Source: Escherichia phage JM10
Reading direction: 5' to 3' (one strand)
Length of the DNA stretch: 64,000 nucleotides
Sequence record: PP400777
In this document: piece after piece, positions 46,616 to 58,768 of the stretch
Position numbering within the stretch: position 1 is the first letter of the stretch
Layout: each line of letters begins with the position of its first letter
Program-made: the position numbers and the translations under genes
The notes under the pieces: model-generated
Database searches by the model: none
Seen by the model: the letters and a program-made list of their open reading frames with translations, nothing else
What the model was told of the DNA's origin: nothing

Positions 46616-46805
46616 TTACAAAGATTGCTTTGTCGCCATTTATATCTGTGACTTCATATGTAGTGCCTTCATACTGTGGAATATTCCAAATTACACCATC
46701 ATTAGCTTTTACGCTAATATGGTATTGGTGTTTTGAAACAACTTCATAATCTTCAAAACTTGTAAAAACACTAATTTTAGAACCAGTGCAAATTGCAGTA
46801 GTCAT
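46608..46805 (-). CDS. Hypothetical small protein (65 aa)
   Basis: ORF with 8-nt overlap to the downstream gene. Confidence 0.45.
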   Translation of the reverse strand: MTTAICTGSKISVFTSFEDYEVVSKHQYHISVKANDGVIWNIPQYEGTTYEVTDINGDKAIFVID

Positions 46806-46806
46806 T

Positions 46807-47466
46807 TTAACCTCGATTCATAAATGCATTAAATATTTGGTCATCAACAGAAATTTCTAATTCGACTTCAATTGCTTCAGCCTTTTCTTCAAGTGGTAAT
46901 TCGTATCCACACACTACAATTTTTTCATCGATATCAAAATATACAGAAGCAATACGATTAATGTTATTTTCAGTTAAGTCTAAATCAACATCAACATCTT
47001 TTTGACCTACACTTAAAGGATAACTAATACGGGTTATTTTATTATCTTTAACAAAGAGACCACCAACATACTCTGTACTACGTTTGAAGTTTACACGTTT
47101 CCGAAATGAAAGATATGAGGCATCTTTACCATGAGCCCTGCTCATAGGACATAATGAATAGCTAGAATAAGAGATGTCAAATCCTACACCTTCAATATGA
47201 GCCAACGCGCCATGATTAAACCAATTATAATCATATGCCAAATCCATTATATTGTAATATGTGAAAGGCACAGGATTAACATCATATGTTGTACCTTTAA
47301 AATCTGCCCAGGCAACGATTTCGTTATCTTTAACAATTACAAAAATTACACCAATATGGTATCCGTTATTATTTTCATTCGGCGTTATATTATAACATTG
47401 CGCATTAGGAAATTTACCATATTTAAATGGCGCATTTTTGTGCATATAATAAATCATATTATTCAC
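46807..47466 (-). CDS. Hypothetical protein (219 aa)
   Basis: ORF in the 61-41 cluster. Confidence 0.5.
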   Translation of the reverse strand: MNNMIYYMHKNAPFKYGKFPNAQCYNITPNENNNGYHIGVIFVIVKDNEIVAWADFKGTTYDVNPVPFTYYNIMDLAYDYNWFNHGALAHIEGVGFDISYSSYSLCPMSRAHGKDASYLSFRKRVNFKRSTEYVGGLFVKDNKITRISYPLSVGQKDVDVDLDLTENNINRIASVYFDIDEKIVVCGYELPLEEKAEAIEVELEISVDDQIFNAFMNRG

Positions 47467-47752
47467 CTGTGATTTCGGTTACGATATCTTTGTTATCGAA
47501 ATTAGGGTCACAATACAAAACATAGTTGTACTGCATGATACCGCCAGACTTAAGTTGTTCAACAACTTTATTAACCATATTAGGACGGTCTCGTTTAGTG
47601 ATGTTCATGATATCAGAGAAGATTTGTTGTTCAACATCTTCTTGATTTGCAGTCATTGACCACTCACAGAGGTCTTTATCATAACCTGCCGTAACTGGAG
47701 CCGGTGCACATGATACTGCAAGTAAGATTGCTGCCAATGATAACTTTTTCAT
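47459..47752 (-). CDS. sp: Spackle periplasmic protein (superinfection exclusion, lysozyme inhibitor)
   Basis: Signal peptide MKKLSLAAILLAVSCAPAPVTA then GYDKDLCEWSMTANQEDVEQQ...QLKSGGIMQYNYVLYCD; 97 aa. Confidence 0.8.
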   Translation of the reverse strand: MKKLSLAAILLAVSCAPAPVTAGYDKDLCEWSMTANQEDVEQQIFSDIMNITKRDRPNMVNKVVEQLKSGGIMQYNYVLYCDPNFDNKDIVTEITGE

Positions 47753-47811
47753 TTTAACTCCTTAGTTGATTTGATAGGACTACTATACTATAGTCCATCT
47801 ATAATGTAAAC
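47753..47811 (-). promoter_or_regulatory. Early promoter upstream of sp
   Basis: Minus GTTTAC - 18 nt - TATAGT, inverted repeat GGACUA/UAGUCC flanking the -10, AAGGAG SD. Confidence 0.55.
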
Positions 47812-47815
47812 AAGT

Positions 47816-48064
47816 TTATTCTTTTTCGCGAATAATAATTACTTGTTGAGGCTGCTGAGCAGATTTCTTTTCGGCAACGATAGACCAAATTAAAGTTCCA
47901 ATCCAACCAATCATCGTCCAGTTAAAGAGTAAAGATACAAAGAAGATTGCTGTTGTGCTTTTTGTGCCACGAATAAGTGCGATTACCCAAGGCAACATGT
48001 AAATGATGATTGAACCAATACCTGCGATTAAAACTGCTACTGAACTAGCTACGAATAATTCCAT
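47816..48064 (-). CDS. Small inner-membrane protein (82 aa), possible superinfection-immunity-type protein
   Basis: Two hydrophobic helices (LIAGIGSIIIYMLPWVIALI; IFFVSLLFNWTMIGWIGTLIWSIV); adjacent to sp. Confidence 0.5.
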   Translation of the reverse strand: MELFVASSVAVLIAGIGSIIIYMLPWVIALIRGTKSTTAIFFVSLLFNWTMIGWIGTLIWSIVAEKKSAQQPQQVIIIREKE

Positions 48065-48125
48065 GTTAATTTCCTCTTGATTTGTTATGTTTATAGTATC
48101 TTATTTTAACTTTGGTGTAAACCAA

Positions 48126-48494
48126 TTAATTAAATTTGTTTAAACGTTCAATACACTGGACGTAGTTATTCGCGATTTGTTTCTGGGTAGGCTCTTTACC
48201 AGTTGTTTCAACATAGCGAATGAATGCGATTTCAGTAGCCTGTAAGCAATGTTCTTTAACGCGTTGTTCTTTTGACAATGCTACAGTATCAGAGTCACGA
48301 TAACGTTGAGCATGGGCATCAGCTTGAATCATTCGATTACCTACAGTAACCGGGTCTTCCACTTCAACTTTAGGTTGTTCATATTGTTTAACATTCGGAT
48401 TGTAAATCAGTTGGCCAACGTTATTAGGAATAAAGCCATGGGCACCACATCCGGTTAATCCGAACACCATTGCTAAAGCGATTAATTTTTTCAT
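48126..48494 (-). CDS. Putative lipoprotein (122 aa)
   Basis: Signal peptide with lipobox MKKLIALAMVFGLTGC. Confidence 0.55.
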   Translation of the reverse strand: MKKLIALAMVFGLTGCGAHGFIPNNVGQLIYNPNVKQYEQPKVEVEDPVTVGNRMIQADAHAQRYRDSDTVALSKEQRVKEHCLQATEIAFIRYVETTGKEPTQKQIANNYVQCIERLNKFN

Positions 48495-48554
48495 TTCAAT
48501 TTCCTCTGTAGTTGATAGAAAGATAGTAACACAGTATGTGGTGCTTGTAAACAG

Positions 48555-48767
48555 CTATTTTAAACTTTTGCGAAATTTGCGTTTTTCTTGACGAATCTGT
48601 CGTTTAGTAGGACGTACAGCAAATTTAACGAAGTCTACTTTGCCGTGTGGAAACTTTTCAGATGCTTCACAGTCCATCATTAGTTCCCATCCTTCCAGAA
48701 TAAGAGCTTTCCATTGTGTAGTTGATGCAAATTCATATGTTGATGGTTTAAACACAGTTGAATACAT
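48555..48767 (-). CDS. Hypothetical basic small protein
   Basis: Listed ORF trimmed to the ATG just after the dmd stop; K/R-rich C-terminus. Confidence 0.4.
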   Translation of the reverse strand: MYSTVFKPSTYEFASTTQWKALILEGWELMMDCEASEKFPHGKVDFVKFAVRPTKRQIRQEKRKFRKSLK

Positions 48768-48768
48768 A

Positions 48769-48960
48769 TTATCCTCTGAAATCAGCTTCAAAAACTTTCT
48801 CGTCATTAATAAATGCTTTAACTAATGTTTTGTTCACTTCAGCAAGTTGTACCGTAACCCACTCGATTTCTTCGCGATCACCTGATAACATCATATCTTT
48901 AGTGAACATCTCACCGCTTTTAAACCAACCGATAAAAGTAACTTTAGTTAATTTGCTCAT
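48769..48960 (-). CDS. dmd: Dmd antitoxin (inhibitor of host RnlA/LsoA RNase toxins)
   Basis: MSKLTKVTFIGWFKSGEMFTKDMMLSGDREEIEWVTVQLAEVNKTLVKAFINDEKVFEADFRG; 63 aa. Confidence 0.75.
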   Translation of the reverse strand: MSKLTKVTFIGWFKSGEMFTKDMMLSGDREEIEWVTVQLAEVNKTLVKAFINDEKVFEADFRG

Positions 48961-49274
48961 ATTTCCTCACAGAATGCCCATTCAGCATGATAAACTGTAG
49001 CACCTTTAGTATCATTCATTTGAACTACATCTACCGGAGAAATTACTCGATAGAGACGTGGTTCACCTCCATAAGAGCGTGCTGCTCGTCCTGCATAAAT
49101 CTTTGCTAAACCGATATCTTCAGTAAAGAATACACGATCCAAGTTTTTCTTACGTCCAGTTTCAGACAGAACTCCTGTTTCTTCAGGAGGACAAAGCATG
49201 TTTTCGATGTTAGCTGAACTACTTGAGCCGTGATAAAAAATCTTAAATTCTGCTTTACAATCGATGGTTTTCAT
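48957..49274 (-). CDS. Hypothetical protein (105 aa)
   Basis: ORF with ATGA overlap to dmd; preceded by a promoter/hairpin cassette. Confidence 0.5.
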   Translation of the reverse strand: MKTIDCKAEFKIFYHGSSSSANIENMLCPPEETGVLSETGRKKNLDRVFFTEDIGLAKIYAGRAARSYGGEPRLYRVISPVDVVQMNDTKGATVYHAEWAFCEEI

Positions 49275-49329
49275 TTTGTTCTCCAGTAGTTGATAGGTCT
49301 ATAATAACACAACTACTGGAGAAGTAAAC
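49275..49329 (-). promoter_or_regulatory. Early promoter with 12-bp anti-SD inverted repeat
   Basis: Minus GTTTAC-UUCUCCAGUAGUUGUGU-TATTAT-AGACCUAUCAACUACUGGAGAACAAA-ATG; arm CUCCAGUAGUUG in the spacer pairs with CAACUACUGGAG carrying the SD. Confidence 0.65.
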
Positions 49330-58624: not shown

Positions 58625-58768
58625 CTAGTTAAAGCATTCATACTTCGCTTGTAGTCCAATCATAATCCATCCGATTATAAGAGTCGGAACCATTACTGGA
58701 GCCGTTAAGCTCCAGTAGATAGTCATGACAAGCATCAATAGTAAAAGTCCTATTGTTATTGCTTTCAT
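58625..58768 (-). CDS. Small membrane protein (47 aa), not in ORF track
   Basis: MKAITIGLLLLMLVMTIYWSLTAPVMVPTLIIGWIMIGLQAKYECFN; start overlaps the SIS gene stop (ATGA). Confidence 0.45.
   Translation of the reverse strand: MKAITIGLLLLMLVMTIYWSLTAPVMVPTLIIGWIMIGLQAKYECFN

Follow-up and report, generated by a model that had tools for sequence, protein, structure and literature searches.

Probable RB69-type arrangement of the T4 genes sp, imm and imm.1 in Escherichia phage JM10, and a tentative role for the predicted lipoprotein Imm.1

Within the 64,000 nt of Escherichia phage JM10 (sequence record PP400777) that we analysed, in the following called the window, three adjacent small genes encode products that appear to be directed to the cell envelope. 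This raises the question whether the locus is a new island or a known gene set in another place, and what the lipoprotein among its products might do. The original prediction recognised sp, left its neighbours as an anonymous membrane protein with two helices and a lipoprotein without T4 counterpart, and read the trio as an island for superinfection exclusion or envelope modification.

The three open reading frames are present on the minus strand where they had been placed: sp (gene 61.3; Spackle, 97 aa) at 47459-47752, imm (immunity-to-superinfection inner-membrane protein, 82 aa) at 47816-48064 and imm.1 (predicted lipoprotein, 122 aa) at 48126-48494. Each is preceded by a Shine-Dalgarno sequence (GAGG/GGAG) 6-9 nt from its ATG. 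With regard to protein families, Sp matches PF25676 (E 1e-42, 145 bits, cut-off 27, residues 1-96 of 96) and phrog_1586 (E 3e-42), Imm matches PF14373 (E 1.5e-15, 57.2 bits, cut-off 27.9) and phrog_1039 (E 1e-30), and Imm.1 matches PF17578/DUF5481 (E 2e-9, 38.2 bits, cut-off 27) and phrog_1754 (E 6e-29). Since all three exceed the curated gathering scores and the lipobox cysteine of Imm.1 is kept in nearly all of its family, we consider the trio real genes and not chance ORFs. None of the three proteins has a match in NCBIfam or PADLOC, and no second copy of sp, imm or imm.1 is found in the window.

The window belongs to an RB69-like Mosigvirus. Its DNA is 98.2% identical to RB69 over the region, while the closest match is phage vB_EcoM_G2469 (98.8%). 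The RB69 locus has identical genes, order and spacing with only point differences (about 98% DNA identity), and its record NC_004928 (RB69p035-037) already carries the names sp, imm and imm.1. Very probably, then, the trio consists of three genes shared with T4, in their Mosigvirus (RB69-type) arrangement. As such the cluster is ordinary, i.e., the locus is already annotated, and for two of its three products the mechanism is already published.

The identity of Sp stands as originally predicted. Besides its family matches, the protein is 66% identical to T4 Sp over 97/97 residues, and both C29 and C81 are kept. Its hydropathy profile has a single N-terminal hydrophobic stretch (residues 4-24), in agreement with the signal peptide that had been proposed. 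The predicted cleavage site, between VTA and GYD, aligns with that of T4 Sp (AMA and GYD), which is cleaved after residue 22 (PMC7650644); a signal peptide of 22 aa leaves a mature protein of 75 aa. T4 Spackle was shown to act in the periplasm as an inhibitor of gp5, the tail lysozyme (PMC7677548, PMC7650644). The window's Sp would accordingly lose its signal peptide and then bind and inhibit the gp5 tail-spike lysozyme domain of an incoming phage.

By similarity, the 82-aa protein is an orthologue of Imm, which in T4 is the second of the classical exclusion proteins. Full-length identity to T4 Imm is 65% (54/83 residues, one 1-residue gap). The two-helix description is borne out by two hydrophobic stretches on the Kyte-Doolittle scale (1-34 and 40-59) with a short basic loop (RGTKST) between them, even though the relation to Imm had gone unrecognised. 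R32 and W49 are invariant across the Imm proteins of six genera. They correspond to R33 and W50 of T4 Imm, which are reported to be necessary for exclusion; the same preprint reports that Imm binds the tape-measure protein and that plasmid-expressed Imm excludes T4 without other genes (10.64898/2026.03.06.709160). Following this literature mechanism, Imm in the inner membrane would bind the tape-measure protein gp29, such that the DNA-translocation pore is not formed.

For the lipoprotein, the claim that T4 lacks a counterpart does not hold. Judging from its alignment and family membership, the 122-aa ORF is orthologous to T4 Imm.1: the two proteins share PF17578 and phrog_1754 and are 33% identical (E 3e-19, residues 3-118), where the T4 protein has a lipobox of its own (LAGC). 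The reading that a novel lipoprotein, an anonymous membrane protein and sp make up a new envelope-modifying island is therefore refuted, and we give it practically no chance. It could draw on the gene order 61.4-imm.1-imm-sp, unlike that of T4, in which no gene separates 61.4 from sp, and on the 33% identity, which is too low for Imm.1 to be recognised by eye. These points are outweighed by the full-length similarity with matching lipobox and cysteine pattern, by the shared families, by the 65% identity that makes the membrane protein Imm, and by the gene names of the RB69 record. That is, the exclusion part of the island reading is sustained for sp and imm, while nothing supports its envelope-modifying part.

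Next, we compared the locus with T4. In T4, imm.1-imm lies between genes 43 and 42, and sp lies between 61.2 and 61.4, 6 kb from imm. In the window, imm.1-imm lies between 61.4 and sp. The gap between imm.1 and imm is 11 nt in T4 and 61 nt in the window, where it holds a promoter-like site. In T4, imm is followed by an unannotated mini membrane ORF (about 47-49 aa), which in the window remains at the old locus; the imm block is thus divisible. The proteins themselves correspond closely in layout, i.e., Sp, Imm and Imm.1 are 66%, 65% and 33% identical between T4 and window with lengths within three residues, and both phages share the Sp signal peptide and cysteine pair, the functional Imm residues as well as the Imm.1 lipobox and C-terminal cysteine pair. 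Structurally, the locus differs from T4 only in where the imm.1-imm block lies.

Each of the three genes has a promoter-like site of the T4 early type on the minus strand. The sites 5' of imm.1 (48523-48552) and between imm.1 and imm (48093-48122) both consist of GTTTACA, a 17-nt spacer and TACTAT, while the site 5' of sp (47782-47811) combines GTTTACA and a 17-nt spacer with TATAGT. These promoter calls are consensus matches; the motif occurs at 18 sites in the window compared to 3.1 +/- 1.9 expected, and 17 of the 18 are on the gene strand. Given an early-type promoter and a Shine-Dalgarno sequence per gene, all three products would be expected within minutes of infection. As a side observation, with regard to promoter-cassette shuffling as a possible mechanism of the relocation, the promoter-like region 5' of imm.1 is similar to that of imm.1 in T4 (z 7.2), while the region 5' of imm is similar to that of sp in T4 (z 7.3). 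Since all early promoters have their consensus in common, we do not take these similarities as evidence for shuffling.

Imm.1 itself has a single N-terminal hydropathy stretch (4-22), which includes the originally reported lipobox LTGC with Cys16. Applied by hand, a PROSITE-type lipoprotein rule agrees with this assignment: MKKLIALAMVFGLTGC shows K2 and K3, an uncharged h-region, [AGS] at position -1 and Cys16. Of 26 family members with a complete N-terminus, 25 have the lipobox cysteine. One homologue has Phe in its place, and no member of the family has Asp at position +2. A lipobox match alone is no proof of lipidation, since Sp has an invariant lipobox-like cysteine (Cys15) and is nevertheless cleaved after residue 22. 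In the C-terminal part, C83 and C114 are invariant in 9/9 diverse members; among 27 family members, C114 is invariant and C83 is present in more than 90%. The pair may form a disulfide. A kinship of Imm.1 with Sp (both periplasmic and helical with cysteine pairs) was rejected, as hhalign paired only the signal peptides (probability 28%).

The AlphaFold2 model of Imm.1, of low confidence overall (mean pLDDT 62), places three helices (C-terminal pLDDT about 80) behind a disordered tether. In the predicted layout, the lipobox is followed by a flexible tether, then by a short beta-hairpin (IYNPNVKQY) and a three-helix domain that contains C83 and C114. A fold search with this model returned generic helix bundles only. 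The family profile gave nothing significant against the sequences of solved structures (best E 0.4), and three of the matches were lipoprotein signal peptides.

At least seven T-even genera carry the family. Within Tequatrovirus, all 502 records show at least 95% identity in Imm.1, among them T2 (97.6%) as well as phages that infect Yersinia, Shigella or Salmonella. Between T4 and the window, in contrast, the divergence of Imm.1 is twice that of Imm (33% vs. 65% identity).

To describe the linkage of the two genes, we used IMG/VR loci that were collected by searching from the Imm side, i.e., not with Imm.1. An Imm.1-family gene adjoins imm in all T-even loci (23/23), on the same strand and 7-146 nt away, and in none of the 57 non-T-even Imm loci. 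The pair is kept in four different arrangements, where adjacency persists with inverted order in Dhakavirus and Gaprivervirus, with relocation in Mosigvirus and with a different upstream neighbour in L096. The numbers of GenBank records are likewise equal for Imm and Imm.1 (154 for Mosigvirus, 502 for Tequatrovirus). Kanagawavirus Q7622, however, keeps an Imm.1-family gene downstream of gene 43 while Imm is not detectable anywhere in its 174-kb genome. Given this whole-genome scan, we rejected a strict co-dependence of Imm and Imm.1. The linkage is not obligatory and may in part be inherited gene order.

What, then, does Imm.1 do? We tentatively propose, as a possibility we consider less likely than not, that it is a lipid-anchored accessory guard against incoming T-even phages or their ghosts, or a protection of the envelope, which acts independently of Imm and not as its obligate partner. 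Imm.1 would be lipidated at Cys16 and, lacking Asp at +2, end up in the outer membrane, on its inner leaflet. Its three-helix domain, stapled by a disulfide, would reach into the periplasm on the tether and there take on this guarding or otherwise protective role. A more specific form, in which Imm.1 is a third, Imm-independent exclusion layer that is tethered to the outer membrane and intercepts a tail-tip or tape-measure component of the incoming phage, is in our view rather unlikely. If it were true, the guards would be found on the outer-membrane side (Imm.1), at the cell wall (Sp) and at the inner membrane (Imm). Imm.1 could then also set genus-specific exclusion groups and, e.g., have a part in the exclusion of T4 that is reported for RB69, given that it is at least 95% identical within a genus and about 33% between Tequatrovirus and Mosigvirus.

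The accessory guard has to be weighed against the possibility that Imm.1 has no part in exclusion at all, to which we assign not quite an even chance. Imm.1 would then be an early periplasmic lipoprotein with another envelope function, e.g., envelope stabilisation, lysis timing or the targeting of a host periplasmic protein, and would neighbour imm by co-moved DNA, both genes being long established in the variable stretch that follows gene 43. Kanagawavirus, with Imm.1 at just this position in a genome without Imm, fits such an account well, as do the mini ORF left behind by a divisible block and the activity of Imm alone from a plasmid. The literature on imm.1/DUF5481 points the same way: it holds no experiment that ties Imm.1 to exclusion, and the one paper that names Imm.1 as a marker of the T4 group assumes an exclusion role without data. 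What co-moved DNA explains less easily is an adjacency to imm that outlasts at least three rearrangements (the Dhakavirus/Gaprivervirus inversion, the Mosigvirus relocation and the neighbour change in L096) and extends to every T-even Imm locus. The predicted early-type promoter that imm.1 has in common with sp and imm also speaks against this account. The same strict adjacency, together with the 1:1 co-occurrence in Tequatrovirus and Mosigvirus and the joint relocation of both genes, could suggest that Imm.1 is an obligate partner of Imm, i.e., a chaperone, anchor or specificity subunit within an exclusion complex that spans from outer to inner membrane. We consider this improbable: Imm can bind the tape-measure protein and exclude T4 on its own, such that Imm.1 is dispensable for Imm activity, Kanagawavirus has Imm.1 without Imm, and Imm.1 has diverged twice as far as its supposed partner.

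Known exclusion lipoproteins offer two further comparisons. Llp of T5, a lytic coliphage, is a receptor-blocking lipoprotein that acts on FhuA (PMC9586334). As predicted for Imm.1, it is small, made early and located in the outer membrane. Given this likeness, Imm.1 might mask an outer-membrane receptor, which would prevent further adsorption or spare progeny from loss on debris. A receptor mask should track the receptor, and Imm.1 does not: its sequence is nearly constant in the 502 Tequatrovirus records despite their differing adhesins and receptors, and it shows no variation with receptor specificity. Since we also found no sequence or fold similarity to Llp, nor a match to solved structures, receptor masking was rejected as very improbable. 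A functional analogy for the accessory guard may instead be seen in Ltp of Streptococcus phage TP-J34, which is an exclusion lipoprotein that targets the tape-measure protein (PMC3952083); it is membrane-tethered, and its helical part lies outside the cytoplasmic membrane. Ltp carries tandem three-helix domains on a lipid anchor, while the Imm.1 model has one such domain and a predicted anchor. The Ltp host is Gram-positive, unlike those of the Imm.1 phages, and Ltp is absent among the structure and sequence matches of Imm.1.

The comparative data thus narrow the hypotheses for Imm.1, i.e., the protein is neither receptor-linked nor strictly dependent on Imm, and it carries a conserved cysteine pair. 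As a small predicted lipoprotein encoded almost always beside imm, Imm.1 provides a testable lead, namely whether it adds to or tunes exclusion. An o-spanin was considered as well and rejected given the early-type promoter, the position between 61.4 and imm and the missing i-spanin partner; the T4-type spanin pair sits elsewhere, e.g., as the annotated Rz-like pair in Q7622.

The three ORFs of the original prediction are all on the minus strand and found at exactly the predicted place, i.e., sp (47459-47752; 97 aa), imm (47816-48064; 82 aa) and imm.1 (48126-48494; 122 aa), each with a GAGG/GGAG ribosome-binding site shortly 5' of its ATG. Sp is matched by PF25676 (T4_Spackle, E 1e-42) and phrog_1586, Imm by PF14373 (Imm_superinfect, E 1.5e-15) and phrog_1039 ("immunity to superinfection", E 1e-30), and Imm.1 by PF17578 (DUF5481, E 2e-9) and phrog_1754 (E 6e-29). 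With regard to hydropathy, Sp shows one N-terminal hydrophobic stretch and Imm two, as anticipated for a two-helix membrane protein, while Imm.1 has a single N-terminal stretch with the predicted lipobox LTGC at its end (Cys at position 16). Over positions 46800-49300, the window shares 98.2% identity with RB69 and 98.8% with phage vB_EcoM_G2469; the source phage belongs to the genus Mosigvirus and is a T-even phage of the RB69 type. The RB69 RefSeq annotation of the same stretch reads 61.2, sp, imm, imm.1, 61.4 and dmd. That is, the cluster is the already known sp-imm-imm.1 locus of RB69-like phages, and each of its three genes was found only once within the window.

All three proteins have full-length counterparts in T4, with 66% identity for Sp (97/97 residues), 65% for Imm and 33% for Imm.1 (E 3e-19). 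T4 Imm.1 (125 aa) carries its own lipobox LAGC, and the DUF5481 core is T4 Imm.1 itself (E 5e-72). The assumption that the lipoprotein lacks a T4 counterpart was therefore wrong. The proposed exclusion island holds for sp and imm, while the novelty of its lipoprotein does not.

The gene order differs from that of T4, where imm.1 and imm (11 nt apart) are located between genes 43 and 42, and sp is found 6 kb from imm between 61.2 and 61.4. In the window, imm.1-imm is placed between 61.4 and sp, and the old locus 3' of gene 43 now harbors arabinose-type DNA-modification genes, as in RB69 (PMC6024577). T4 encodes an unannotated 49-aa membrane ORF (minus strand, 1728-1877 of L002, the T4 imm region) with overlapping imm stop and ORF start codons (ATGA). 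The window homologue of this ORF (58625-58768, minus strand) is still located just 3' of gene 43, and shares bases with the stop codon of the SIS/GutQ-like gene directly downstream of gene 43; it thus remained at the ancestral locus while imm.1-imm moved beside sp. RB69's annotation describes this ORF as "similar to T4 42-imm intercistronic region". It belongs to a conserved family of single-helix membrane ORFs of 47-49 aa (phrog_3610), which is also present in P896, Kanagawavirus Q7622 and the Logan metagenomic contig L096.

Searching for the T4-early-type motif GTTTAC-N17-19-TANNNT yielded 18 copies in the window (3.1 +/- 1.9 expected), 17/18 of them on the gene strand. Consensus matches are located on the minus strand directly upstream of imm.1 (48523-48552), imm (48093-48122) and sp (47782-47811), from which we infer early transcription of all three genes. 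The promoter-like region 5' of imm.1 (48495-48554) is closest to the region 5' of T4 imm.1 (z 7.2), while the one between imm.1 and imm (48065-48125) is closest to the region upstream of T4 sp (z 7.3). Promoter cassettes may have recombined during relocation and left these similarities as a trace. The region 5' of sp (47753-47815) contains a 6-bp inverted repeat (GGACTA/TAGTCC) across the -10 element.

The linkage of imm.1 to imm was studied within 80 IMG/VR loci retrieved with an Imm alignment. In all 23 T-even-type loci, an Imm.1 HMM match shares the strand of imm and either overlaps this gene or is 7-146 nt away from it (upstream in 14 and downstream in 9, judged by coordinates), compared to 0/57 of the non-T-even loci. 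Among these IMG/VR loci, sp adjoins imm only in the two RB69-like cases. Both arrangements are also seen in individual phages: the lipoprotein gene is upstream of imm in Merlin (Moonvirus; phrog_1754 E 2.5e-48) and Klebsiella phage Roth76 (genus not in its record; E 2e-15), and downstream in AnYang (Dhakavirus; E 4e-52) and, after the mini ORF, in P896 (Gaprivervirus; E 7e-47). GenBank record counts are equal for Imm.1 and Imm (154 Mosigvirus and 502 Tequatrovirus records each). Contig L096 (SRR30535852_365571) provides another context, i.e., frd.3-like, imm.1, imm and mini ORF; its Imm.1 homologue (718-1086; 47% identity to that of the window) has LAGF followed by AHA|S and is probably a soluble periplasmic variant. 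Kanagawavirus Q7622 shows the order gene 43, Imm.1-family gene (175-aa lipoprotein; 19956-20483 of L099, a segment of its genome), SIS-domain gene and mini ORF. A six-frame scan of its whole 174-kb genome (NC_070778) identified neither Imm (best E 0.17) nor a GW..IGW motif. Thus, imm implies imm.1 in the sampled T-even loci, while imm.1 does not imply imm.

The Imm.1 family is small: profile searches yielded 8 matches among 1.84 billion representative proteins and 26 in a word-indexed database. Its members are 116-177 aa long. The lipobox Cys is present in 25/26 N-terminally complete sequences; the sole exception (P0002) has LAGF followed by the signal-peptidase I site AHA|S. C-terminal to the Cys, the family shares the motif G-x-[IV]-V-x4-[VI]-G-[KQ], an invariant Tyr within a short hairpin and, in the C-terminal half, two near-invariant Cys (C83 and C114 in the window). 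The E. coli +2 rule sorts lipoproteins without Asp at +2 to the outer membrane; since no family member has Asp at this position, Imm.1 is predicted to reside there. An AlphaFold2 model (27 sequences; mean pLDDT 62) consists of a disordered tether up to residue 28 (pLDDT <50), a beta-hairpin (30-39) and helices 48-70, 75-98 and 104-120; the C-terminal part reaches a pLDDT of about 80. As C83 and C114 are in the last two modelled helices, the model suggests a disulfide staple. Comparison with solved structures gave no meaningful fold or sequence match. Kinship with Sp was rejected, as nothing is shared outside the signal peptide.

For Sp and Imm, mechanisms are available. Mature Sp (75 aa, one disulfide) binds and inhibits the gp5 tail-spike lysozyme domain (PMC7677548; PMC7650644). 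Within the Sp signal peptide, Cys15 is part of a lipobox-like sequence (AVSC in the window, with the Cys codon at 47708-47710; LASC in T4) and is invariant together with P19 and A22 in 18/18 clear homologues. N-terminal sequencing of over-expressed T4 Sp from the periplasm revealed cleavage after residue 22 (PMC7650644), such that a conserved lipobox pattern is no proof of lipidation. One possibility is that the invariant Cys15 reflects a lipidated intermediate or a membrane-bound Sp fraction. Imm binds the tape-measure protein gp29, and exclusion is weakened by R33A and W50A (preprint 10.64898/2026.03.06.709160); the respective residues of the window (R32, W49) are invariant in an Imm alignment from six genera. 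The 94-aa extended Imm used for cryo-EM (same preprint) is not conserved, since no in-frame start is found upstream of the window's imm ORF.

Tentatively, Imm.1 may be a tethered periplasmic guard contributing to exclusion, a reading we consider possible if doubtful. The main rival, which we regard as quite possible though short of probable, is an unrelated envelope function, where adjacency to imm reflects inherited gene order. Between T4 and the window, Imm.1 is the most diverged orthologue of the neighbourhood except gp42 (other neighbours 57%-85%), while being nearly invariant inside each genus. Such a pattern is compatible with a genus-specific interaction as well as with relaxed constraint. 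Across all 502 Tequatrovirus records, among them T2 (97.6%) and phages of Yersinia, Shigella and Salmonella, identity to T4 Imm.1 never falls below 95%. This constancy, independent of receptor specificity, led us to reject a receptor mask like the T5 lipoprotein Llp. An obligate partnership with Imm is contradicted by the Imm-free Kanagawavirus and by plasmid-borne Imm, which works alone (preprint 10.64898/2026.03.06.709160).

Directly 3' of sp, gene 61.2 (46807-47466, minus strand) has a match to the Pfam family AdfA (E 7e-120; anti-DarT factor A), and dmd (anti-RnlA/LsoA) is found at 48769-48960, which places sp-imm-imm.1 inside a run of counter-defence genes. The 105-aa ORF at 48957-49274 (minus strand) is RB69ORF040c (phrog_2110; no Pfam match). 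The phage HX01 record lists an 'ADP-ribosyl transferase' among the features of this stretch. A 96-aa homologue of the 105-aa ORF in Q7622 (28681-28971 of L099) is likewise located in the 41-sp interval.
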